Source: Trichoplax sp. H2
Lineage: Eukaryota
DNA length: 64,000 nt
Reading direction: 5' to 3'
NCBI GenBank assembly: GCA_003344405.1
Contig: NOWV01000101.1
Span: 124,001 to 188,000 of the forward strand
Within the stretch, counting starts at the first letter, position 1, and each line of letters begins with the position of its first letter. The position numbers and the translations under genes are program-made. The notes beneath the pieces are model-generated. The model saw only the letters and a list, made by a program, of their open reading frames with translations, was not told the origin of the DNA and did no database searches. Positions 800 through 59,600 of the stretch are shown here, one piece after another.

Positions 800-1622
800 T
801 TAATTTAAGCTAATTGAATTAAATATGGAGATCAACGGGAAAAATTTTCAAGGAAAATTCGTCCTACTGCTAGCACAAGTAATGTACAGTACGATCATTC
901 ACTATACTATGTACTGTACCTTACAGTGTACAGTACAGTACAGTAGTCGTTGGTCAGCAAGAGTTTGAATGTGCAAAACGACTTGTCATTGCTGTTAGGG
1001 TCACCTCTTTGACGACATGGGTTTGTCTCCTGCTATTGAAGCAATCGCTTCACAGTACAGTACAGTACAGTAGTCGTTGGTCAGCAAGAGTTTGAATGTG
1101 CAAAACGACTTGTCATTGCTGTTAGGGTCACCTCTTTGACGACATGGGTTTGTCTCCTGCTATTGAAGCAATCGCTTCACTCAAAGGTATGACCATTTAT
1201 TTTGCACATTCTATTTGTCGTGCTGTAACCTAATACAGTACAGTACAGTACTGTAGTACAGTACTACTAGTTGACTGCGTAGAGATCACGCCACTGGCGT
1301 TGGCCCATCAGGGCGTTACAGGAAGAAAGTACATAGTACTGTACTGTACAGTACCTGTTAATACTGTGCACTGTAGAGGACTGGAGACTTGGCTTACTAT
1401 ACTGTTCAGTCATTGCGCAGAAAAGCTTGGAGTACACGTGATAGCTAGAAGGCCAAAATTGCAAATCTTGCAAGCAATTTCACCACCTAAAGATTCGACA
1501 GTCTTGTATAGTATCGCTTGACTAGGGATCATTTTCTATTTTACGCTACTTCAAGAGGAAATAAGATTGTCAACTACCTCAAATCAGTCAGAGTCATCCT
1601 ATNNNNNNNNNNNNNNNNNNNN

Positions 1623-4395: not shown

Positions 4396-6389
4396 AGATT
4401 TTACTAGTTGATAATTCAAGCAGGTAATGATTAACTAAATCTTTATTTCTAAAGTTTCATAGCTTGAACTCATTAAACGCTAAACTTAACTTAGGCCGAG
4501 TAATATTTGTAATCTGAATTAGTACGGTATATATAGATTAAGTTTTTAATGGCATATGAATCACCTACTTAACTACTTATGTTTTCATAGATTTATGCAT
4601 TAAAACATTACACCTAAAAGATGAAACCGAACATTAATGGCAAGATATCAATACATAGTTAAATTTACCAATGGTGTATTTACTGGCGGAGTTCTTATGG
4701 TTTTCCTGTATTGACACATGCCTAGGACAGTAACTAAACCGACAATAAAATCTATCACAGGTCGCCAATACTATACTTGCGATAGAATAACATAAAATAA
4801 GTTATAACTATATACTGCATATACAGTGCAAATTCCTGGATTAGTAATTGTAATTTCATTACTGTTATATACTTATTATTGACATGCATTGCAATTGCTT
4901 TATAATCAAATTATTTTGTATGAAATGATAAAAGGCATATAAGACTAGAACGATATACTCGTACGTATGTGGTGTATACGAGTATACCTGACCAATGTCA
5001 TCGTAGTGTGCTAGGCTTGTATTATAGTAATATAGTTTGTATACATGTCCATCATTATTGGTTGCCATGATCTATGCAATGCTAGAATCGGGCAGAAGTA
5101 CTTTACAATGCATTACATTATATTAATATACGCGTATGTTATAAATATATCTGTAAGTATGTAAGCGTTGCACAGAATACTGCCCTCCACATCAATAAGA
5201 ATAGCGCTTTTGATATGGATCTCACATTGACACTCAGTGAATATAACAATTATAAGAAATCGTAAAATTGAAACTAAGTCACTAAAATTAATACCAAGTA
5301 GTATCTCAATACAATCTTGCTGTAGAACAGTTCTTGGAATCTGCAACAAACTACAGTATTTATATTGCAGTCTTATAGCAAATGCCTTTTATAAGACATA
5401 ATTATGCGATGCAAAATAAATAATCTCATTTTATACCTCGCTTAAAGGAATCAATCAATTCTTGCACTCTAAATGATAACGACAGTATCTACCCTAACCC
5501 TAACATTGTGCACTACCTGAAAACTATTATAATTCAACTAAACTGCATGTGAGTTTCATCTAATACCTAGAATTAGCTGTTCTGCAATAGCTAGAACGAT
5601 CGATCGATCTGATGGTTGTAACTTTAGGCAGTCATCACTGATTTGAAACTCGCTCTGTGTAAGATATCCGAACTATTGTAATAACAGCCAAAAACCGAAC
5701 CTCTGACACTCCTACCAAAGACTACAAATAAAGTAAGGGGAATTTCATAGCACAACTATGAAAACACTTTATAAAGTACTTGATGGTTCACCTTTTAAAA
5801 GTGAGATTTTATCTATTATGCTGATTATGTCCTTCCTACTGTAAAACGTTTACTGTATGCAAATAGAATAGGAGCAGGTTTCTAGCGCCGATTTTAGTAA
5901 CATCGCCAATAGTCTTACACTATTTGTGTACGTTACTCAATGAGTTTAGGCTTAGTACTTTTCTCTATCAGTTGTACTGTACAACAGTAATTCAATAAAA
6001 ACACTACCTTTTCGTAGAGTTGGAATTTATATATAAAATTTTATAAACTTCTTAATATGCTTATTAGCACCGAGTAATATTTGCTGAAGCAAAATACTGC
6101 GGCATTTTTCATGTATTTGAATAAACCATCTACCTACGCTAATTGCAAATATGACAATAGCAAGCCATAAAAAATTGCAAAAGTGTACCGGAGCTTTGAC
6201 CAGTATCTATACTCCAGTTACGTCATAATGGCACGTATTATAATCATCTAATATAGCACAAATATGTAATACCTCAGACAGTTAAAAATGTAGCTTATGA
6301 AGTGGTAATGGAATAGAAATATAAATAACGAGATAATGATAAAGTTAAGCATTGCACTGCATCATAAGTAATCTTCCGGAATGACAACA

Positions 6390-9940: not shown

Positions 9941-11612
9941 TACGGTGCGTTGATTGCATGATATTTAAATACGGTTAAACAAATAACGCCGAGAAGTCTT
10001 TTATGTCTATAGTGTCTGAAGAATTTATCATTTTGGATTAAGTTAAAGCAAGTATTTCTTGTCGAGCCAACTTAGCTGAAAGAAAGCTTGAAGCCTAGAA
10101 AAATTTGTAAGTTTAAAAAAATTAGACAGCTATAATATTATAATCCATCAATGCTTTAGGAGAGTGAAAGTTTTATCATTGTACTGTGCTCAGTGCTCAC
10201 GCTCAAATATTAGCAATCTTGATATCTTTTTTTGTAAAGTTTTTGCAAAGCATCAGTGCAGTGCTGTCAGGGTTGAGTGCAATGATATTGAAAATGTCTG
10301 TTAATTCCTGGATAGAAAGAGAAATGGGATCATAGCTAGGTCTAGGACTATCGAATTACGAATATTGTTGCTCATAAGCTAGCAATTAGGAAATGAAAAT
10401 AGTCGTCATTATGAACCGTTTGATGTGAGCATCGAAGCAGAGCTGCTTCGATATTTTCCTTTTACTGTATACAAAAAGCAAAATGAATTGAGTAGTCATC
10501 GAATATACCAACTTTAGCAATAATCATAGCCTGTTCTAACATACTGTACTGACGTTAGAAGTAATAAATTAACTTGTAACTACACCAACTGCTGATTGGA
10601 GATGGAGCACTCGATCGCATTCATCACCTTTCCGATCAAACCTTGTTAGTAAGTCATAAATACATGATCCTTCGATGAACTAGTACTGTACAGTGTACAG
10701 TACACAACAGCAAGGAAACATACTCAAAACAGACTCTACACACTGGTGTACTACTGTACAGTATTGTACTTTCTATCAGCATTTACGGTACTGTAACACG
10801 TAGAGTTTTTTCTTAACTCTATGACTGCACTGTACAGTACAGTATGATGTCATCTTAACTGTACGGTGTGTGAATCACGCGAAGCGACTGAATCGAACCA
10901 AACGTTCTTAGTACGCTACGTTACCATAGAGCCGAGCTTCTGACAAGAATGTGATGCTAGTAAATTAATTAATAGGATATAGAAAGATTTGACCGTACAG
11001 TATATGGAATCTTTTGACGATACTAATACTTGCAAACTACTGGAATAGTGAAGCAATTGATTACCTTAAAAAGTAAAATAAAATGAAACTAAACTTACTT
11101 ACTTGTCTTCACCATGTGTAAAATCAGCACAGTACCATTGACTGAATATCAATATCTATAACGAGAATCCTAGTACAGCCATTTAGCGTTAGCGTACGGC
11201 CTTTGTCATAATTTACAAGTATGTACGTATTGTACTTGGTATGATTTATGATCACTAAAATTAAACCTAACCGTATCGATTTAAACATTAAAGCGGCAAT
11301 CTTCTACAATACATTTCTTAATATACGCATTGAGTAGTGATTGATTGTACCGGCACTGTTGGTTGCACAGTTTCATAAGAATACTTAAATTGATCGATGA
11401 AATTAAATTAATAATTCATTACATGTTATTATAATCAATATTACTACGGAGAACAGTTCACTTTTTGCCTATTAGATGACAATGCTTCTACTCTGATCAT
11501 TGTATTTCACTGTGCTAAACTATGAATCTGAATCCCATGCAGTATGTGTGTAATACTATAATAGTTCGCAGATTTAAAAGTGTTTTCCTTACTCTTTCCT
11601 TTTATCAGGATA

Positions 11613-13130
11613 ATGAAGACCATTTTAATAACATTAGCCGCTGTCTTAGTGGTTGTTAATGCTGCCGTTTGTCCAGGTGGGCAATCTGAATGTCCAGCTG
11701 GTACTACCTGCTGCAACCTAGGTAGTGGTCAGTATGGATGCTGTCCATTCCCTAACGCTACATGTTGCGCGGATCACGAACACTGCTGCCCTGGTGGATA
11801 CACATGCAATACTGGTGCTGGCACTTGCCAAGTAGGTACTACAGTAATTACTATGCGAAAGAAAATTCCAGCTACACCTGCTCCTGCCAAGAATGGAGTA
11901 TGTCCTGATGGTCAGTCTGAATGCCCGACTGGAACAACCTGTTGTATATCAGCCTCTGGTGCTTACGGTTGCTGCCCATTCCCTAATGCAAGTTGCTGCT
12001 CAGATAAAGAACACTGCTGCCCAAGTGGTTATACATGTGATGTTTCAGCTGGTACATGTACAATGGGTCCCTTGCAATTACCTATGTATGCTAGATTTGA
12101 TGCTAAAAAAAATAACAAAAAGGTAAAGGTTAGCCAACCAGCTAGTAATGGAGTTTGCCCAGATGGTACTTCGGAATGCCCAGTAGGTACTACATGCTGC
12201 AAGTCAGCTTCTGGTTCGTATGGTTGTTGCCCATACCCCAATGCTACTTGCTGCTCCGATATGGAACACTGCTGTCCTAGTGGCTTTACTTGTGATGTTA
12301 GCGGTGGTACCTGCCAAATGGGTACTGTAAAATTGCCTATGTTCGCTAAATTATCACCAAAAAAGGTCAAAGCTCCAGCAGCTAACGGTGTTTGCCCCGA
12401 CGGTATCTCTGAATGCCCTAGCGGTACCACTTGCTGTAAATTAGTATCAGGATCATATGGATGCTGTCCTTATCCCAACGCTGTTTGCTGTTCCGATCAT
12501 GAGCATTGTTGTCCTAGTGGATACACATGCAATGTTGGTGCTGGTACGTGCCGAGCAGGTAACATCGAAGTGCCCATGTTTGCCAAATTTTCCGTCAAGA
12601 AAGTAAAAACTCCAGCATCTAATGGTGTCTGTGCTGATGGCCAATCAGAATGCCCTGCAGGCACAACATGTTGCAAATTAGCTTCCGGCAGTTACGGCTG
12701 TTGCCCATATCCAAATGCTACCTGTTGCTCCGATAACGAACATTGCTGCCCTGGCGGATATACATGTAATGTTGGTGCTGGAACTTGCTCCATGGGTACT
12801 ATCAAGCTACCAATGCTAACTAAAATTCCAGTTATGAAGCGTGCCCCAAGCCCAAAGAATGGAATGTGCCCTGGTGGTCAGTCCGAGTGTCCATCAGGAA
12901 CTACATGCTGCAAACTAGGATCCGGCTCTTATGGTTGCTGCCCTTTCCCTAATGCAACTTGCTGCTCCGATATGGAACATTGTTGTCCATCAGGATTCAC
13001 TTGCAATACCGGTGCTGGTACGTGCTCGTTGGGCAAGATAGAACTACCAATGTTTGCCCGAATCTCTGCCAAGAAAGTCGAGAAGTCTAAAAAACCCAAG
13101 AAAAACTTCTTCAACATGTTTATTTTGTAA
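11613..13130 (+). CDS. GRN: Progranulin: signal peptide plus six full 12-Cys granulin modules in a single coding exon
   Basis: MKTILITLAAVLVVVNA signal peptide, then six C..C..CC..CC..CC.D..HCCP..C..C modules. Acceptor tttatcag at 11608 precedes the ATG. Confidence 0.95.
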   Translation: MKTILITLAAVLVVVNAAVCPGGQSECPAGTTCCNLGSGQYGCCPFPNATCCADHEHCCPGGYTCNTGAGTCQVGTTVITMRKKIPATPAPAKNGVCPDGQSECPTGTTCCISASGAYGCCPFPNASCCSDKEHCCPSGYTCDVSAGTCTMGPLQLPMYARFDAKKNNKKVKVSQPASNGVCPDGTSECPVGTTCCKSASGSYGCCPYPNATCCSDMEHCCPSGFTCDVSGGTCQMGTVKLPMFAKLSPKKVKAPAANGVCPDGISECPSGTTCCKLVSGSYGCCPYPNAVCCSDHEHCCPSGYTCNVGAGTCRAGNIEVPMFAKFSVKKVKTPASNGVCADGQSECPAGTTCCKLASGSYGCCPYPNATCCSDNEHCCPGGYTCNVGAGTCSMGTIKLPMLTKIPVMKRAPSPKNGMCPGGQSECPSGTTCCKLGSGSYGCCPFPNATCCSDMEHCCPSGFTCNTGAGTCSLGKIELPMFARISAKKVEKSKKPKKNFFNMFIL

Positions 13131-21957: not shown

Positions 21958-22962
21958 CTATTTACTTCTGATACTTTCATGCACTTTACACCTTCGATTA
22001 CATTTCAAGAATTGTTTAAATTGTTCCTTAATATTTCTATCATAGGTTAAAAAAATTAAAGGATTAATAAAAGTTAACAGTAGAGTTAGCGGCACTGTAA
22101 TATTACTCAGAACGTAGACTGAGAAATGATATTGCTCCAACTGTCTTAGCGAAATTGTGGAGTAAGAGAGAACCATAGTTTTAATAAGATGTGGTAATTG
22201 ACATAAAAGAAAGACACTGGTAGTTAATACCAATACATGTATAAGATTGCGCTTTTGCCTCATTTCTAACTGTTTTCGCTGATTAGAAAGGCAACCAGGC
22301 CGGATACGCCGTAAAATATATTTAACAATTTTAGTATAATTATAAGCCATGAGTAGACATGGCAAAATAATGACCATAATGACGAAAAAGGTTAGGTAAT
22401 ATTGAACACCAGAATTGCGCTGGTAGATATCACAGAATACCGGAGCATCAATATAAGAATCGGTAAAAATTATATCGGGTATACAAACTAATAGGCCAAT
22501 AGACCAAATAGATGCAATAACTATAGCCATAAATTTCCTATTGGTAAATCGAGATTGGTAATTAAACCATGTTGATGAGACGATAACATCATAACGTTCA
22601 CAACTAATAACAGCTAGGGTTAAATTACATACACTTGAAAATGTATCACTAATATAAAATGATAATTTACACATTAATGAACCACTTTGATAACTGAGTT
22701 TCGTACCAGGTGGTGTAAAAGCTAAAAAAGTTAATCCAGCTGGATAGACGAAGGAAAAAAGACAGCTTGCAAAGGATAAGTTCCAAACTAGTATGTAAAC
22801 CGCTTTATGTAATTTTTTCTTCATGGTAATGATATGAAGTAAAATTATATTCAAAATCAGGCCTAAAATAGAGCTTGGAAGGCCGACAGCAACCGTTATC
22901 GATATTGGAACAATACTACTAACATTAGTGTTACTTAGATTTACTGTTAATGACAAATTCAT
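21958..22962 (-). CDS. Intronless rhodopsin-like (class A) GPCR, 334 aa
   Basis: Seven hydrophobic segments, N-terminal N-glycosylation sequons, TM3 Cys, CERY, LCQLP and NPLIF motifs. Confidence 0.93.
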   Translation of the reverse strand: MNLSLTVNLSNTNVSSIVPISITVAVGLPSSILGLILNIILLHIITMKKKLHKAVYILVWNLSFASCLFSFVYPAGLTFLAFTPPGTKLSYQSGSLMCKLSFYISDTFSSVCNLTLAVISCERYDVIVSSTWFNYQSRFTNRKFMAIVIASIWSIGLLVCIPDIIFTDSYIDAPVFCDIYQRNSGVQYYLTFFVIMVIILPCLLMAYNYTKIVKYILRRIRPGCLSNQRKQLEMRQKRNLIHVLVLTTSVFLLCQLPHLIKTMVLSYSTISLRQLEQYHFSVYVLSNITVPLTLLLTFINPLIFLTYDRNIKEQFKQFLKCNRRCKVHESIRSK

Positions 22963-24433
22963 CTTTAAGCTTCAAGTTACTAGATGTCGTGATCGCCAAG
23001 TTAAATAACTGCTCGATAACTTAATCTTAAAGACGAGTATTAAGCTTTGGTAATTGCTCAGGCTGTAATTAGAATTGAAAATTAATTTCGAGACTATTAG
23101 CTCCGATGAAAAACACGGTCAATTAAATTTGGAAAAATCAAATCTATACCTTCGACGATAGAATAAGTAAGATTCAAAAGATTGAGAAAAAATTTCCTCA
23201 GAATGATGCGCTAAGGATCAGAATGGAAGGCTGAAAATTTAGTTAAAATCTCTTTCTACATACATTGGGATAAATGTCCTTAATAAGCAATAAATTGAAA
23301 ACTATTCAATGTTGAGATCTTTAGAATAAATAGCAGAGATCTGAAAACGTAGGATGGTGGTCAATGATAAAGCAAAGTAGAAGAGTTTCCAGAAAGAGAT
23401 CGAGAATTCTCCGTATAGCTTCAAGCTGATTTTTATACCCAACAAGTTCAGAAACTGAGCATATCAACTCTCACTATTCGTTTCTAAATACTCTCTACTA
23501 TACAGTAGTTCTAAATAATGCAATGGTATCTGTTATATATGAAAAGAATTAATCCTTCTAACAGATAATGAATGAAAGAGATTCAGTATTGTATAAATTT
23601 GCTCATGCAATAGCAGGACGTGCCAGGAAAACCTAATTGCCAGAGAGTAGATGGTAATCTAATACGAGTTAGCTTGAGGGCTTTAATGGCGATTTAAAGC
23701 TAAGTAACATCAAAATAGTCCAAAGCTTCTCGTAATTTCTTTCACTATATTTTTTATAATATAGGAGAATATCTATATAAGAGGTAACTATTCGTGTCCG
23801 AAAAAAATATTTAGGGCGCTAAAGGCTTGAATGAAATTAAATACCAAATTGATAGAGAGTAAATAATTTTTACTTACACTAATGATTTAATGAGGATATA
23901 GGAATTAGACGAAGTTAAATGACTAAAAGTTTAACCTAATCCGTCTTAAATTTGTAACACAATTATTGCTATAAGAAGTAATTTTTAACTTTAGGTAAAT
24001 ATTAATAATTTTAAGGTTAAACTGAAACCAAGCACGTAGGTGAGTAGACAGATACCAATCAATTCTTCCTCAACTTAATGGCCGTAATAGTCATATTATT
24101 ATCGGGGCAAAATCAGGTAATTCAAGGATTTCTATTCCTCTTTATAATATCATTAAAAACAAATTGTAGTTTAAAGAAATAATTTTCAATTTTACGCGGA
24201 TATCCAAGGGACTCAATGATAGAAAGGCCTTAAATATCCATCGATAAGAAGGCGATTAATTCTTACTTAGCTTAAAAGCTCCAAAGATAATATAAGATGT
24301 GGGACAAAGTGATTTAAATTTCAGTCTACTTATTCCCAATATTGTTTTGATGCGAACTTGTCGTTGTAATAAGTAATTTTCAGCTGTAGATAGTGATCAG
24401 TAGGCCCTTAAAGCTGTAGTGAAATGAGATCGC

Positions 24434-42550: not shown

Positions 42551-45500
42551 ATGGCGTTAGAGGTGAATACAAATCATCCACTTTCATCTTTAGACTCAGA
42601 GATCTTCACGCAACCATTACATGAAAAATCTGTGCCAAATCATCTTGTCGAAACAAGTAAGCTACAGTATGAATAAAGTTAGCTTCACGAGAATTATAAT
42701 ACGCATAGTGTACTGTTTAATCACAAATTAGCGCATCAGAAGCTCTTCAACAGGATCATTAGGATGTAGCTTAACTACTAAAACTACTGCCAACGTAAAC
42801 GATGTGATTTGTTTATAACATCCACATTTATGAATAACTATTCTTCAGTTTTATGGGCATCCGTTGACAGTTTTTAACAAACATAATAATCGTATCAGTA
42901 AAGCACCTGTAGTTTTCAATATTACGATAAATTGTTATGAGAAACCTACTCATATATTAGAATTTATATATATATATGATAAATATACAGAAATGATATA
43001 ATGCCATGTCATTTGTTATTATAAAGTTAAAAATGTTTCGGTCAATCTGTAAGATTACTCTCTCAAGAACACACTTGCTATACTCTATTTCGATTTAAAA
43101 CTTGAAGAACCAAGACTACTTAGAATAATTATTTGTCCTATTGAATAACAATTATCAGTTCGTTGGAATTAAGCGCCTATTGCATAAGCTTCCGAATCTT
43201 CTTATTCAATTATTACGGAAATTTCTTTCAGAAATATTTGGCCAGGTTGCTCATAATGCTGTAATTGAAGCTAAACCGTCCGAAGTTCATTTCGCAGGAT
43301 TTCAGATCGGCAAGACAGAAAAATATAAATTGGTAATCTCCGTAGATATATAAAGATTTTATAGCTGAATTCTTGGATGCAAGCAATTACGAGTGAAAAT
43401 ATAAAATCACTCAATCATATCATTTTAGAAACTTTAGTCTTACATTATAGTAGCTATGGTATCATATTCAATTCTAATTATTTACCGTTACGAAAACAGA
43501 AACTTACCAATATCTCGGCGGATCCTCAACGTGTTCATATTATACCGCCAACAACCTCATATTTCAAAATAAGCTATGAAAAACAGGTAAAGTTAAGTCA
43601 ATCCGAAGTTAAATGAGCAAATTTACGTCAGTATGAGTCGCTGCGTTTATATTTGTTCGATAAATTTATCGAATATGTTATCCTATTTGATATTCTTTTA
43701 CTAAATCCAAACTAAACAGGCCCGTCTCGTTCCTGGTTTAAGTATTGAAGTCAATGTTGAACTTTTCCCAAAAGATTGGATCTATTACGATGACTGTATT
43801 CGTGTACACTGCAAAGTAATCTAAGAATCAAGATAATTGACTTTTAATAACTGTGATTAATATGACTATTCTCTTAACAGGATGACGAGAATCTATTGAT
43901 ACCAATTCATGCTTATCCAGTACTTGTAAAGTCTACTGATTTTCCAAAGAAGATTAACTTCCCTAAAACACCGTTAGCTCATAGGTAAAGATGGGTTCGA
44001 TATCAAATATGTATGTCTAATGTATACTGATTTGAATGATTTATTATACATCGAACACCTCTAGTTTTTCAAAAACTATTCCTCTTCGATCAAATATTCC
44101 AGTTGACTTTGAATTTGAAATTAAAATAATAGAATCTAATGATGCATACGTAATAAATCCCATGTCAGGCAAGAATTTATTTTTATCACCAACTGATAAG
44201 TCTGTTTTCCGAATATAGATGACGAAAACATATTAAATTCATATTTCTTTGGCTCTTTTAGGTTGCGTGGCAGCTAACAGCCAGGAAGACATCGTCGTTA
44301 CTTTTACCCCGAATGATTACGCAACCGCCCACATGAAATTTCAGGTAACATAAATAATCGCAGTGATGATAACGAATGCGCATAGATAGATCGCTAAAAG
44401 TCATTTCATAATTTTTAATTAAATATGCTATAGTCGTATTTTGATGTACTTTACTTGTAAAGCGAGTCTTGATGCAAGACTAAAATAGATTTTATTAATT
44501 AACTATTATCAAATATTAGATATTCGAATTAATCATTCCATTTCATTGCTAGCTCTTAGTTTCGCAATTCAATTCAGAATCGTTTGTATGCACGGTAATA
44601 GGATCGTCAGAACCTGGACTTGTTAGGTGTGTGATTATTAATACACTTATAAATTAAATTATCGGTATTATTTTTGATTTGTTCAATAAAACCAATTAAT
44701 AGCTCTTAACGTGTATATCATATATACATACATATATATTTATACAAATTTATTGGTATCTAACGTGTGACACACCGTTATGACGGCCTGTATTCATGAA
44801 AATTTTAGGAAAAAATTAATAGAAGAACATGAAAAAGAGAGTAGTCAAACTTTTCAAGACAACGATATCATAACAATTCCTGGCTATGATTCTATAACTG
44901 ATCCATCGTTGCTGAAGCCATTAGAACGCTCAAAGTATAAGAAAGCTATGAAGAAGACTGTAAAGGTTCAATCTGGTCTTAAGGTAGATATGCATGTACA
45001 AGTACAATTTACAAGTATCCAGCACGTTTAGTTTCATCTGAGCACGAAAATTTATAAAACCAAAATTGTTCAATTTAAAAATACTATTGCGTAAAACAGC
45101 CAGGACAGAAAATACTATCGCAGTAAGAAATGTACATTAAGTTAACGTTAACTACACTGTACTTGCAATGGAATGCTGATTAATTAATTAAGCCAAATAA
45201 CAATACTTGCGGGCAGTGAAATGGCTGCTGGACTCCCCAACACTTATTGCTCACAATATACAGTACTGTACAGCATAATAATTATAATTGGCAATCTAGC
45301 AGACTATGCCTAACAGTACTTACAGTATAACAGTTCTGCAGTACCGTGCAGGGTACGATCAATATACCGTACTGTACAGTATATTTTTTGGAAGCTTGTT
45401 AAATTAATCAGTAAGCAATCTCGGTATACTACTGTACAGTACAGTAAGTAACTGAGGCCATTTGTAGACAAAAACTCGCTCGAAGCTTGCATTGCTCAAG

Positions 45501-48500
45501 AAATAGTGACATAATAATTTTTACTTTATTGACACTTAGCAGTAGGGTAGAATGGTCAGCAACCATAACAAAGTCGTCGCCGGCTCTGCTATGCGAGAGT
45601 TTTAATTCATGGAATAGTCATACTCTCGGATCATCATGTGTATCCTTAATCTGTGTCTCATTTAAGAGACAACAGGTAAGGATCACCCTACTGATAACGC
45701 GACCGTGCCAAATCATCCGTTATTATACTGGAGACCAAACCCCTTCAGTTATGGGATAGATATTTTGCATATTTCATGACGGTACGGTGCGTTTCAGTAT
45801 CAGTACTGTACAGTAATGCAATGCCTTGTTAGTACTGTACTTTACAGTACGTAAAAATGTATGTACTGTACAGTATGTACTGTACAGGATGCAGCACGTA
45901 CTGTACTGTACAGTGTACAGTACAGTGCACTTTTGTTGTACGTCTTTCTCGATAACTGCAGCATTCGAAATTTATTTCATAAAATTCCCAAAATTGTTCA
46001 GTTATTTACAGTTAAAAGCCCGCTTTTACTATTGCTGGTCTTCTACGTACCGTATACATATTTATATATATATATACACTGAATGCGATATAATGTACAC
46101 AAAAATTACGCACAGTGACGTATTACAACTCATTCGCAAAAATGAACAAATTTACCCGGACAGACTAAGCACTAAATAGTGTCAGGCATGCCAAAAATGA
46201 AAACCAAAACTTTAGTTATACAAAATACGCGTATATGCAACTACTATAATTAGGTATATAAAAATATTGGATTGTTTCGACACGGTTATTTGTTGTATAT
46301 ATAGACGGGATTTACTCAAAAGTTTGCCCATCCCCTCGAATTATAATACTCGCATTCATAGACTTACTAAAGGATTATCGGAAAATGAATGAATTACTTG
46401 TTCAGTAATCCTTGATTTAGATTTCTCTAATTAAATGATTTTACGGTCACACCGTATTACCATCTAGTATAGCTACTGCGGTTTAAAAATTCGCAATGAA
46501 AGCGAAATTGAAATAATCTATTAAATACTGGCTATATTAAATATTAATTAATACATATTCAATGTAAAATTATTAGCAGACGTCCCATACTATTGTACTG
46601 TAATTGAATCAAATTTGCTAGTCTGTTAGTATTATAGGCGTACGAAAACTGATATTATACTGTATAATAAAATTAAATAAAGCCGTACATTTAAATTTTT
46701 TTTCTTGATAAATGCACAGTTGTAGGCTAAACATACTGACAAATTTTGTAGTGTATATGATGCATAAACCCGTACGTATAACGCGTATACAAGCTTACTG
46801 TACTACCTTTGTTATAGATATTCTATAGGAAACTACAACCATTAATTAACGTCACTACATCATTTTTAGGGCATGGAAGATATGAAGGTACCGCTTACCT
46901 TGAGTTGTCCTAGTGAAGTAGCACGCGTCCTAAATCAAAAAGACGGGAAAATGAATGTTAAAGAATTAAAACAAGGTAACCTATATTGCATTTACTTCAA
47001 AACTTTTAATTCATCTAGATTCCGTACTATATCTACAATAGTTGAAAACAGATCATAGAAAATACGCGTAAATAGAGTTACTGTCAAAATTTGTATAATG
47101 GGCACATACTGGCATAATACGATGTGCATTGTGATGTGTTTGTGGACAGTTGTACGAGCACACTTACCTGCAATAGAAATCATAGACACACAGCAAAAGA
47201 AAATAAACTTACTAAATTCAATTACCACACCTGGTGAAGGAAAGGAAATTATATCTACACTCTACAGTGATTCTTACGATTTTGTGAGATACTATTGAAC
47301 TAATATAGTAATTAATATAAAGTAAATCCATCAGAACATATATTAATTATCTATTAATAATATAATTTATACTATACAGGCCTAAATAGAACAAGCAAGA
47401 TTCTAAAAACATATTACTTATAGCCGCATATTAACTAAATCTTTCTTTATTTTGCCCTCTTTTTGTCACCTTTAAACGACGTACGCGTATGATATCCAAC
47501 AATAAATCAATATATAGCTGTTGAAGTAGTCTCGAAATCGGAAGCTAACAGGCAGCTGAAGGTTAACTATACGTACTATAAAAAATATTGTTATCTTCCA
47601 GTTAATTATAATCGCTTATCCGTCATATGGTAAACGTGCTTCAATTCTCAATTAATCTATATTCTTTGTAGGAGGCATTTTTCGAACAGCAAGTGCGTCA
47701 ATTTGTTATGGAAGAAAGAGCAAATCAACTACGCTGGTTTGTATTCGATGGATCACTAAATATATATGAATGAAATAGTGAACAACGATTTGATGCTAAC
47801 TTTATCATTAAACTAAAGTGATCAACTAATAAAATTATCACAGGATGGTACATCGAGGAGATGAGAAAATGACAAGTGAGCAACAGGAAATAATTCTAAA
47901 AAGCAGACAGCATTCGGAAGAATCATACAAAGTAAATATTTGCTATGAATTAAGAGCTAATCCTCTTACTGATCTCACTAAATCATATTACTTTAATAGA
48001 TATTTCGAAAAGAATCCATAACATTAAATGAAAGTAATAGGAACGCTGTAAATTGTTCGTATCGTAGAATATTTAGAAATGCAAACGAGGTAAAATTAAC
48101 TATTTCTACTTGTTCTCTCTCAATTTACTAAAGAGTTACAGCTTAATCTAGCGTAAATCAATGCAATCAAATTTCATATAAAATTACTAAATGTCTACGT
48201 AAAATAACAAATCGTTGTATTATTCTAGCTACCAAATTGTCAGCCATCATTTGACGTTTACAGTAACGATAATTGGGCGAAACGACATTCTGTTTTACAA
48301 CGATTTATTCAAGCTGCCCGAAAGGTATACATTACTTGATTGTAAACGCACATGTTGATACAAAGCAATTATTCCGATATCAATATTTTTTAACTAAAAT
48401 CTTTGGATGAGTAACATTATTGTTGGCATTACACGATAGATTATTATAAGAGAAAGAGCACAAAAGCATCTAGAATCATTACAAGTTCTTGTCGATAACT

Positions 48501-55454: not shown

Positions 55455-56645
55455 CTATGCTGTGGCAGTTATACTCCGTAATGATATGTTGTAATTGGAT
55501 TTTAAGTTTTGCCTTGATGTAGCTAAAGATGGATTAGTTATAGAGTGATGACTAAATCGGGTGCAACCGCAAGTTACCAGTAGATAATCCAGGCTGTGAT
55601 TTGTTATACAGATAATGAGTAAGGAATTAATTAAAGGATATGCAACAACAGATGTAGTAGCTATATTAAGAAAAATGATATTGTCAGCCGGCCTTAGAAT
55701 CGATGGCCACAATTCGTACATAGCTAAAGGCAAAACGCACAAGATACCTACAATAACGAATAGAAAGGCGAAAGTTATAGTATTTTTACGATACCGGGCT
55801 AAATTTTGTATAATGCGTGGTTTTAATCCTTTTCGTCGTCCAGTAAAAATAATCCATAACCGATAACCAAGGATGACATAAATAACCAAAGTAATAGCGA
55901 ACGGGAGGCAATAAGATAGAGTAATTGAAACTATAGTTAGATATTTAGCCACGTAATATTCTAATGGCAGGGTAAATTGAAGGCAATTGCACAAAGTTAC
56001 TTGGACATGAGTTTCAATAGCGTTTGTTGCAACAGTTGATAAGTATATCGTTGGTATTATATCGTCGTCAGTAGTAATGTTAGTAGTAGTATTATAATAA
56101 CTTCCGTTATGAGAATAGTACGGACTGTTTGTTGAAAAATTAGTAGGATTACTTAGTGAAGATGTATATACTAAAGTCGTCGCCGGGCGTTTTTGGGAGC
56201 GATACCCAGCAATATAACCGTAAAGTCGCACTATCATTATGAACAGAGCTACGATCCAAATGATCATCATCCTGCGTTTTGTATGTAACTTTGTTGCTCG
56301 TCGTCGCCACAGTGGACTTAGCATGCGAATAAAACGATAGTGGGCAATAGCAACATTTGTCCAAGCTATTACAGTGATCGCATACCAAGTTAAAAAGTGG
56401 CTTACCTTACATAAAATGATATGAACCAAAGGCATTGTACTTACAGATAGAATACCAGATGTACTCATGATGATATAAATCATACTTAGCGTAAGAAGAA
56501 TATCGGTAACAGCAACATTAGTCAAGACATAATTGAATCCATTTTGCAAATTGCGTACACGAAACATCATCAAAATGACCAAAGTATTTACAATCATTGA
56601 TAAAAATAATAGAATTGCCATGATGATGAAGAATGTAAGATCCAT
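55455..56645 (-). CDS. Intronless divergent class A GPCR with a long extracellular loop 2; start at 56645 or 56690
   Basis: TM1 Asn, NVAVTD (TM2), CK (TM3), HYRF in place of DRY, YCLP, LCVLP and NSLLI in place of NPxxY. Confidence 0.88.
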   Translation of the reverse strand: MDLTFFIIMAILLFLSMIVNTLVILMMFRVRNLQNGFNYVLTNVAVTDILLTLSMIYIIMSTSGILSVSTMPLVHIILCKVSHFLTWYAITVIAWTNVAIAHYRFIRMLSPLWRRRATKLHTKRRMMIIWIVALFIMIVRLYGYIAGYRSQKRPATTLVYTSSLSNPTNFSTNSPYYSHNGSYYNTTTNITTDDDIIPTIYLSTVATNAIETHVQVTLCNCLQFTLPLEYYVAKYLTIVSITLSYCLPFAITLVIYVILGYRLWIIFTGRRKGLKPRIIQNLARYRKNTITFAFLFVIVGILCVLPLAMYELWPSILRPADNIIFLNIATTSVVAYPLINSLLIICITNHSLDYLLVTCGCTRFSHHSITNPSLATSRQNLKSNYNISLRSITATA

Positions 56646-59600
56646 CTTGCTTTCTTTTTCTTTCTTGCAATCTCTCTCTCCCTCTTTCAACCTCTATAGT
56701 ATACAGTACGTACTTTATTATCAGCACTAAATTCTTTTCGGTTGAAATGGTCCGAAAAAAATGCCGCTGAGCTAGAAAATTAAGTACACCAAATTTAGAG
56801 TAATATGGTCACGCAATAACGAAAATAATGATCCAATTTATCATTATACGAGTACATATAATGTCCCAGAAAGGATAGATAGGCATAAGTAAAAATAAGC
56901 TTTCGAGATGAAAGTAAATACAATCAAGCAGCTAGTTTCTACTTTAGTTTAAAATCAACGAGCGGAAAATTCTTTTGATTTGCGCCAATTAATAGATATA
57001 CAATAAAAATTTTAATTCCATCTGGTTAGTTATTAGTAGATCTTGTAACATCCAATCAAAGATATCATATGCAGATTCGGAATAGCCAACATCATCAATA
57101 AAACAATGCTATTTATAAATTTGACTTTTCCTAGATTATCAAGGTGTAACCCTTTTACTCTGTAACGTGGTATTGTCTTGCTTTGAACGTATCCGTTAAT
57201 TTTAGCTAAAGCGAACTTTTGACCGTGCTTTCTTATTAAGGTAATAATTGACCGCTTTTAAAAAATTGTTTTTTATTTATTCTTCGCGTTTAATAATTTT
57301 GCTTTTCTCAAGATCTACCAATTTCTATTCAAAGTGTATATCTTCTGCTATAGTGCAATATTGTGTCAATTCCGGTTTAGCATCGGTTTGAGCAGCTGTC
57401 TGGTTTGAAAGTATACCCTTATAAGAGCATCGAATATATCAATACTTTCGGTACTGATGATGTTAAATTTTTTATTATCATAAATATTGGATAACGGTTG
57501 ATTTTCCGCAATCCTATATACTAAATGGCAACCGTTAAAGATAGAATTACATTGGACTATTCAAACTGCAACAGTAATACGGACAATTCTCGATACCTTA
57601 AAGTCATCAGTCTCAAAATAATCTTCTGTAGATTTCTTTTTAATTATAATTCTTATCTTACAAAAGTTTAATAATGTGATTTTATGATGTTGTTTTAAAG
57701 CGCTGTCAAAATTAAATTAAAAATTAAATTAAAAATCTTTAATTAATATTGAATTGAAATCTTGACATGTTGAACAAAAGTAATTATTTTTTTTTATCGG
57801 GAACACAATAACATCTAGGCAATTTTTTTAAACTTAAGCCATTGATTGAAAGGAGATTAAAGTTTGACGTCATTTCAGTCATTCTAAAGGATAATCCGAT
57901 ACCTAACTAATACTCTAATAAGATACATAAGAGGAAGAGTACGGAGAAGGAGAGAAATATTGATATCAATTTAGTAATGAAAAATGTAAAGAGTAATTGA
58001 GTCAAGTTATTAAAATGTAGAATTGTATAGTAGTTAATCTCAATAAAAGATAGAAGTAAGTACCATATGTATTAGTGATATAATAATCTGCTTGATGATC
58101 AAGCTTTTATTTTGCAAAATGAAGACATACTCATACACATGTTATAGGGTACCACAATAAAATCAATTTACGTATTAATTTGTAATTAATTGGATTTACA
58201 TCTCCCTTGTTTCTCATGATTGGAGTATCTGTACGTGTTGCGTCATACACTTGCACAAAGTACACAGAACGGTAATGTGCAGGAAGCAGCATAATTTAGA
58301 AGTTGTTGATGCAATCATTTAGAGAGATTTAAAGATACACTAGATGGTAGAGATAAACTTTGTTATTTTTTCAACAATTTATGAATTCGAAGTACAGTTC
58401 ATATAAATAAATAATAATGAAAGGTTACAATGGTGAGTTGAAATTTTTCTCGAAATAGTTTTAACCGTATCTACTCATACTATTTTTACTAAAAAAGCTG
58501 ATAAAATTATTACCGGTGTTTATCCGCTCCCCTACTACTAATGTATACGTACACTATAGTAGACTCAGAAGGTAACTTTGCAAATTTTGATAAATTAGTT
58601 GACTCTAGAGATTGAATTTATCATTCCATCTTGACTAAGTAAGCAAGTTTATTTATCATAATGCTCAAAGGCTGCACATTTCGCCAGGAATTTATGAGTA
58701 GCATTGTGATGGAAATACAGTATACATGGCATTATTGCTACTAATTTGAGATAAACGATTGTTATTGAGTAGGTCGATCGCGTGGGCACGCTGGAAGAAT
58801 CTACACATATGCTAATCAGTACTATAAATGTCTTACAAAAGACATCGTAAATATTTAAGATCACTTTTATGGGATTAATTTAAAGTTAGGGTTAGGGTTA
58901 AGATTTTAATTGTATTATAAGCTATATGAATCTGAAAATAGAAACGAATAGGCTTTTAAATAAATAGCAGTATAGTTATTATGTTCGGTAGAAAAGCCAG
59001 ACAAAGCCAACGTTCTTAATTTTAGAATAGTGTTCATGTACAGTGCAATAGTGTAACTGTACAGTTGGGTATATGTTATATATATGTATATAGTCTGTTG
59101 TAAATACAGTTAAGGTTGGTTTTATTGTAATAAAGCTTAATTCAGGCTTTAAATCCAGTTAGACTGATTTATTATTGACCCTTAAGAAATGACTTTACTA
59201 TACTGCTCTACGTTGAAACAGATATGTTTTATGAATATGAGAGTCCCACACAATTCAAACCAAGCAAGTTGTTCACCTTAGTACCCGAAGGAAAGGGGAA
59301 GAGGGGAGGAAACACAAAGCACATGTGGTAACCCTTTGGATGTGGAAAGGAAATATTATTTCGCTATCATTATGGCTATTCCTCTTATGTGTTAAATAAT
59401 AAGAAAGATAGTAATTTGATAACTATCTGTAGTCGTTACAGCTAATAACAGTATTAATGAGCAGCGAAAGTTTTACAGTAATTTAAGTAAGCACTGTGCG
59501 ACGTAGATTAGTCGGTTACGCTTAATAAAGTAGTTGTAGATGATAGCTGGTGTGATGAAACGGTATACTTGTACTATTCGTGTAGTGTCGCATTAACAAT

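Follow-up and report, generated by a model that had tools for sequence, protein, structure and literature searches.

Introduction

The U8 small nucleolar RNA (snoRNA) acts in the maturation of 5.8S and 28S rRNA. According to the accessible parts of two preprints, human U8 is made as a 161-nucleotide (nt) precursor that is trimmed to 136 nt, and Integrator cuts the transcript upstream of a loosely defined 3' box (10.1101/2025.10.10.681432). The 25-nt extension pairs with the 5' end of the same RNA (10.1101/2019.12.12.874594; 10.1101/2025.10.10.681432), a duplex demonstrated through the restored processing of a compensatory mutant that combines n.8G>C with n.*5C>G (10.1101/2019.12.12.874594). 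The same texts report that most patients with LCC (leukoencephalopathy with calcifications and cysts) carry a variant in the duplex (10.1101/2019.12.12.874594; 10.1101/2025.10.10.681432). Here we describe a U8 gene in a 64,000-nt stretch of DNA from Trichoplax sp. H2 (GenBank assembly GCA_003344405.1, contig NOWV01000101.1, positions 124,001 to 188,000 of the forward strand). We refer to the whole of this stretch as the window and number all positions within it. The 5' end of this U8 RNA is complementary to sequence in its 3' trailer, and the two arms probably form a closing helix that is confined to the precursor, as in human pre-U8.

A preliminary description of the locus had stated that the human pre-U8 extension pairs with the 5' end, is needed for maturation and carries disease variants, and these facts are in print in the preprint texts available (10.1101/2019.12.12.874594; 10.1101/2025.10.10.681432). 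A tail that pairs with the body of the RNA is also known from the U2 small nuclear RNA (snRNA), whose precursor has a 3' extension paired with internal sequence (as mentioned in the accessible text of 10.1101/2019.12.12.874594). In 2010 the CeR-2 RNA of C. elegans was put forward as an orthologue of U8 (PMC2943600, in the portion available). In the passages at hand, reviews and the 2025 preprint (10.1101/2025.10.10.681432) label U8 vertebrate-specific, and a table entry in a 2023 review gives U8 snoRNA release as 'only in metazoans'. We found nothing in print on 5'/3' pairing of pre-U8 outside vertebrates, in a search that covered neither supplements nor Marz et al. 2011. The latter reportedly surveyed U8 across animals.

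Results

The window holds a U8 gene on its minus strand at 45555-45697. When the whole window was searched with cmscan, the Rfam model RF00096 matched this locus at full length (model positions 1-135 of 135), scoring 60.9 bits (E 1.6e-8) where the gathering score is 41. It was the sole Rfam match in the 64 kb to reach its gathering score, and it bears out the identity assigned in the preliminary description. The gene ends used here are those of the Rfam span and are predicted, not RNA-mapped, 5' and 3' ends. Box D (CTGA, 45556-45559, minus strand) was located from the minus-strand read and by alignment to the Rfam consensus box. Read on this strand, CAGTAGGGT (45693-45685) and ACCCTACTG (45548-45540) are exact reverse complements. 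The ACCCTACTG arm begins at the 8th nt past box D, outside the Rfam U8 span, and 7 unpaired nt separate it from the box. The minus-strand read and the Rfam span thus confirm the exact 9-bp duplex first described, together with its position 8 nt past box D and outside the predicted U8. Its original numbering as nt 3-11 of the RNA holds if the RNA starts at A45695 but not when counted from Rfam position 1 (45697), which makes it nt 5-13.

The helix extends beyond this core. A G-U pair (G45684:U45549) brings it to 10 bp and, past a mismatch (45694:45539), three A-U pairs join 45695-45697 with 45538-45536. As delimited from sequence, predicted fold and repeat search, the 5' arm spans 45684-45697 and the 3' trailer arm 45536-45549, both on the minus strand; 13 of the 14 positions are paired, and the inverted-repeat search lists the duplex with 13 nt and 92% complementarity. 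The 9-mer of the duplex occurs at these two places only in the 64 kb, once per strand. Complementarity of ~10 bp between the first ~12 nt of U8 and sequence just past the mature 3' end is present in the window. The duplex also closes the minimum free energy (MFE) fold of 45530-45697 (-57.7 kcal/mol, z -5.67), which none of 200 shuffles matched, and partition-function probabilities of pairing with the trailer are 0.94-1.00 at nt 5-13. On the 5' strand of the predicted fold the closing helix abuts stem-loop 1 (AUCCUUA with UAAGGAU) without a single unpaired base between them; on the 3' side a multiloop lies between the two.

The duplex is unlikely to be a product of chance. Sampling the window in the same geometry (20 nt, gap, 40 nt; 198,105 samples) gave a probability of 0.0077 for at least 9 perfect bp, a rate that is inflated because the window is rich in TACTGTACAGTA palindromes. 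For the first 20 nt and a 32-nt trailer the duplex energy was -17.3 kcal/mol, with p = 0.0033 against 6,076 window 32-mers, p = 0.004 against 3,000 shuffles and p = 0.0007 against 10,000 dinucleotide-preserving shuffles, so that the four nulls together range from 0.0007 to 0.008. It also exceeded all 45 pattern-matched control loci (best control -14.7, mean -6.0 kcal/mol). These controls are the 27 metagenome, 17 genome-contig and 1 viral matches to the U8 search pattern that are not U8, several of them duplicates of one another.

We searched sequence collections for related loci with a pattern in which both boxes, C and D, were combined with the conserved 5' motif. In metagenomes it returned 36 loci, 9 of which pass the RF00096 gathering score in cmscan while the remaining 27 are not U8; among the 17 matches in the genome-contig scan none had a U8-like 5' context, and the single match in the viral-contig scan was not U8. 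By sequence the 9 loci form five lineages: L005 (101 bits), L012/L033 (97 and 95), L017/L018/L026 (71-72), L028 (65) and L006/L008 (63 and 64). The first two score like vertebrate U8, and the other three resemble the window in score and 5' sequence. No clear genes appeared in the open reading frame (ORF) listing of the 9 loci, and an Atlas search with an ORF of L018 returned no usable match (best score 0.81).

The pairing recurs, strongly, in the L017/L018/L026 lineage. From the first nt past box D its trailer reads CACCCTACTGATG, which pairs with nt 2-15 of the RNA through 13 bp with 1 bulged U (-20.0 kcal/mol; p 0.0003-0.0007 against shuffles and 0.002 against dinucleotide shuffles), an energy that is again beyond 45 of 45 controls. 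Pairing probabilities are 0.96-1.00 except at two U residues (~0.5), either of which is able to bulge. The arm lies ~1-2 nt past box D, 6 nt nearer to it than the arm of the window, and contains the same ACCCTACTG core (9/9 identical), while the remainder of the trailer and the promoter match those of the window at the random level (identity 0.49-0.50). In the U8 body (nt 28 to end) the window is 0.55 identical to L017 and 0.54-0.59 to L005/L012. That a lineage which differs from the window as much as the vertebrate-like ones do shares this arrangement points to selection on the trailer. Across the five replication lineages, a Fisher combination gives p = 0.024, most of it from L017.

The position of the L017 arm bears on a second reading, in which the arm belongs to the mature RNA. 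U8 would then be ~15-20 nt longer, with a permanent terminal stem to be opened on demand by a helicase. Box C/D snoRNAs usually have a terminal 5'/3' stem, an arm that starts ~1-2 nt past box D would suit one, and the RNA ends are known from the Rfam model only. Yet the model ends 1 nt past box D in all 10 sequences, and 7 nt are left unpaired between box D and arm in the window. A permanent helix would also block the pairing of the 5' end with 28S rRNA that the available U8 literature describes, and human U8, in the accessible text, sheds its extension (10.1101/2025.10.10.681432). We therefore regard a mature arm as quite improbable and continue with the precursor helix.

To follow the two arms across lineages, we aligned 10 pre-U8 sequences with MAFFT and scored a 14-pair helix (112 cells), in which 4 of the 10 rows are near-duplicates and the counts, as a result, not independent. 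Pairing in register reached 75.9% of the 112 cells versus 31-52% when the partner was slid by 1-3 columns. When the 3' letters were shuffled between sequences, 74.6 +/- 0.9% of the cells still paired, with 89 of 500 shuffles as high as the observed value, hence no excess over shuffles. Two pairs change on both sides: at nt 2 the window has U:A where L017 and L028 have C:G, and nt 3 is G:C in L005, though L005 has no helix overall. In the L017/L018/L026 trailers 10 of 80 sites vary but 0 of the 12 arm sites, which has a chance of ~0.2 and is not significant alone. The helix is thus backed by register-specific conservation of both arms, without significant covariation. This alignment of U8 loci with their downstream sequence, akin to a check proposed in the preliminary description, returned that conservation and a covariation score within the shuffle range. 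The proposal that the pairing was kept by compensatory change is accordingly not borne out: both arms are conserved, and one compensatory pair (C:G/U:A) accompanies them.

Several observations weigh against a precursor helix of the human type. The covariation score was 0.140 versus 0.125 +/- 0.009, with 24 of 500 shuffles as high, which is not significant, and rRNA binding conserves the 5' arm in any case, which leaves the trailer as the only informative side. Three lineages, two of them vertebrate-like, have no such pairing (p 0.52-0.98, probability ~0). For L006/L008 the best energy was -5.1 kcal/mol (p 0.67-0.79, pairing probability ~0) and for L012/L033 -4.3 to -4.5 kcal/mol (p 0.52-0.80, probability ~0). 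For L005 it was -6.1 kcal/mol (p 0.61-0.63), with pairing probabilities near 0 for a 22-nt extension and 0.3-0.7 at nt 1-6 for 28 nt. The L028 lineage is ambiguous. Its arm GCTGATGA pairs with nt 1-8 through 6 Watson-Crick and 2 G-U pairs (p 0.04-0.08; probability 0.83-1.00 at nt 1-8), and the best extended duplex (-12.7 kcal/mol) was matched or exceeded by 3 of the 45 controls. The arm is, moreover, the third CTGAT motif in a row at the 3' end of that gene (4506-4560, minus strand). The 5' end of U8, UCAUCAG, is in all lineages the complement of the box D/C-like CUGAUGA, and because of this inherent complementarity the L028 match may be a by-product. The independence of the metagenome lineages rests on U8 divergence alone. 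The five zebrafish pre-U8s have no extensive 5'/3' pairing potential in the text available (10.1101/2019.12.12.874594). Finally, the 3' box and promoter elements described below were read by eye only, and the assembled contigs of 4 sequencing runs cover both U8 flanks in a DNA-like manner from which the precursor 3' end is not readable. With two strong cases, one ambiguous and three without pairing among the six lineages (the window and five others), end-to-end pairing is not a universal feature of U8 genes.

Some of these points would also fit chance or neutral complementarity, in which the arm is accidental and functionless and may go back to a single event in an ancestor that the window shared with the L017 lineage. 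The element is only 9-13 nt long, palindromes containing CAGTA/TACTG raise the local rate in the window to the value given above, half of the lineages are unpaired, covariation is not significant and neither is the substitution-free 12-nt arm of L017/L018/L026. Against this stand two separate rare events (window p 0.0007-0.008; L017 p 0.0003-0.002), both with duplexes stronger than every control. An arm core that is identical at 9 of 9 positions amid random-level trailers and promoters is also unlike neutral decay. We judge chance to be an unlikely source of the pairing.

A third reading would give the trailer a role other than masking the 5' end, as a signal for 3'-end formation or termination or as a spare box D/C-like protein site, with complementarity to the 5' end as a by-product. 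CTGA is present in the L017 and L028 arms, TGATGA also in that of L028 with its three consecutive CTGAT motifs, and a greedy pattern search picked the CTGA inside the L017 arm as box D. The window arm, however, contains neither CTGA nor TGATGA, and the shared ACCCTACTG is for the most part unlike a box, its partner being the AGGGU portion of the 5' end. A separate role of this kind appears to us rather improbable, and we retain the closing helix of the precursor as the preferred reading. It may be added that the U8 5' end can, by the same complementarity, pair with its own box C or box D, as the L012 MFE fold illustrates for box C.

The flanks of the gene carry motifs, all recognized by eye, that resemble those of snRNA-type genes. 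A candidate snRNA-type 3' box, GTGTCAATAAAGTAAAAA, lies at 45518-45535 (minus strand), 21-38 nt past box D, and an A-rich, AAAG-like motif is present 15-30 nt past box D in 6 of 6 lineages, always beyond the arm. Upstream, a proximal sequence element (PSE)-like CCCATAACTGAAGGGG at 45740-45755 (~-58) and a TATA-like TATAATAA at 45720-45727 (~-30 to -23), both on the minus strand, mark a putative promoter. An A/T-rich box near -30 accompanies CCCAYA at ~-58 to -60 in 4 of the 6 lineages (the window, the L017 group, L006/L008 and L028), and L012/L033 and L005 have no TATA-like box. The PSE of L012/L033 is presumably of the vertebrate type, to judge by its consensus. Within ~40 nt downstream of U8 there is no run of at least four T, which argues against an RNA polymerase III stop before the arm. 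In one RNA run (X19) a single 66-nt contig at 45537-45602 matches the window exactly and stops 3 nt past the core of the arm, and we did not count it. Variants at 45415, 45469, 45498, 45531, 45624, 45706, 45709 and 45733 all fall outside the arms, at a divergence (~1.4%) too low for this to mean anything. L012, on a short vertebrate-like contig, has U8 copies at 170-302 and 1011-1073 (plus strand), ~840 nt apart, the second cut by the contig end; this tandem cluster is like the five-copy arrangement of zebrafish (preprint by Badrock et al.).

Inside the gene, box C (ATGATGA, 45631-45637, minus strand, with coordinates counted from the minus-strand read) is internal and box D lies near the 3' end, each aligned to the corresponding consensus box of RF00096. 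The conserved 5' motif GATCCTTACCTGT, placed by the Rfam alignment at 45671-45683 (minus strand), pairs with 45643-45649 to form the outer part of stem-loop 1. Its 12-nt core ATCCTTACCTGT is identical in 10 of 10 U8 sequences by construction, being part of the search pattern. The AUCCUUAC..GU motif of the conserved single-stranded 5' region matches all upper-case consensus letters of RF00096; as the window contains no ribosomal DNA, the rRNA-binding role of the 5' motif is assigned here by family consensus. The Rfam alignment also places an LSm-site-like loop, TGAATTA, at 45603-45609 (minus strand) in stem-loop 2, 1 nt longer than the consensus UGAUUA. It reads UGAAUUA in the window, UGAGUUA in L017 and L028 and UGACUUA in L008, so that a UGANUUA one base over the consensus is found in all four non-vertebrate-like lineages. 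A small hairpin, GUAGGG/CCUUAC, lies within the U8 5' region at 45676-45691 (minus strand) and is also present in the MFE folds of L005 and L012. This hairpin would be in competition with the trailer helix as well as with rRNA binding.

Clusters of TACTGTACAGTA palindromes flank the U8 gene at 45353-45446 and 45803-45887. Contig depth at such palindrome repeats is as high as ~49,800 (45902-45928, run X3), which points to a high-copy repeat family. Elsewhere in the window, two near-identical ORF pieces with a NUDIX domain (335-799 and 1574-2029, both minus strand, the second interrupted by an N run) may be isopentenyl-diphosphate-isomerase-like candidates and reflect either a tandem duplication or an assembly artefact. 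An uninterrupted ORF at 11565-13130 (plus strand) encodes six granulin repeats, and two single-ORF genes for rhodopsin-type G protein-coupled receptors lie at 21958-22971 and 55455-56693 (both minus strand). The granulin and rhodopsin-type receptor genes identify the window as animal DNA. Among the Atlas clusters closest to one of the two receptors, cnidarian ones are the most frequent, which is a hint only.

Discussion

The model that we favor builds on four results: the two arms are complementary, such a match is rare, it dominates the predicted folds, and it recurs in one deeply diverged lineage. U8 would be an independently transcribed gene, with the 14 nt at 45536-45549 in a short 3' extension of the primary transcript. 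The nascent transcript would be cut upstream of the 3'-box-like element, leaving the arm as transcribed sequence that maturation later removes. The extension could then fold onto the first ~14 nt, where a 10-bp helix and three A-U pairs are predicted to close the whole RNA. By analogy with human pre-U8, this helix may mask the 5' end that pairs with pre-rRNA and govern how fast the 3' end is trimmed. Once the trimmed end stands a few nt past box D, the helix would, on the same analogy, be destroyed and the 5' end set free.

A broader proposal is that the pre-U8 duplex is ancient in animals, that it predates the cnidarian/bilaterian split, is homologous to the human duplex in which most LCC variants lie and was lost repeatedly, for example in zebrafish-like lineages and some invertebrates. 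We put this forward tentatively, as possible but rather doubtful. The suggestion of the preliminary description that the pairing is ancestral in animals does not follow from our results, with 3 of 6 lineages unpaired and zebrafish, in the text at hand, without extensive pairing potential. If the duplex were ancient, U8 would be far older than the 'vertebrate-specific' label allows, and the timing of U8 maturation by the duplex could be studied in non-vertebrate models. U8 genes that pass the Rfam threshold are present in the non-vertebrate window and in three non-vertebrate-looking metagenome lineages (63-72 bits).

The duplex itself is already known for human, and the non-vertebrate case is a new instance of it. 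It is of moderate interest because the U8 disease literature that was searched calls U8 vertebrate-specific. The generality of the human duplex is questioned by the zebrafish pre-U8s, which show little such pairing in the available text. If the non-vertebrate gene does have a duplex of equal length on these 5' nucleotides, repeated in a second, deeply diverged lineage, the pairing would be a solution that is under selection and recurs, not something peculiar to human. The differences among lineages in box D spacing, in the bulge and in the presence of a duplex would then be natural variants with which to study the coupling of 5' masking to 3' trimming. No basic concept is changed, as the mechanism has been proposed for human.

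Among known systems, the U2 precursor is, as far as the accessible text describes it, a small RNA of RNA polymerase II with a 3' tail that pairs with its body and on which correct processing depends, much as the model above would have it for the window; it is a different RNA, and the partner is internal instead of the 5' end. CeR-2 is likewise a non-vertebrate U8 candidate, with potential pairing between its 5' end and that of 26S rRNA, and the available portion of its description makes no mention of trailer pairing (PMC2943600). It was assigned there by features shared with U8 (PMC2943600), whereas the window RNA passes the Rfam U8 model. The zebrafish paralogues are U8 genes with a functional 3' extension, according to the text available; unlike the window, they are without extensive pairing, as are the vertebrate-like L005 and L012/L033. 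Human pre-U8 (SNORD118) is the closest counterpart. There the pairing starts from extension nt *1, compared with an arm 8 nt past box D in the window, and it is supported by processing assays, whereas the helix of this non-vertebrate animal is known from sequence and fold prediction. In both, the partner lies within the first ~20 nt past the mature end and upstream of a 3' box, which in the window is a candidate one. Letter matching suggests that human n.2T, n.3C and n.8G correspond to Rfam positions 1, 2 and 7 (U1, C2 and G7), all of which are paired in the window helix. Both RNAs belong to the same family, and by this mapping the same 5' nucleotides would be paired in a helix of ~10 bp.

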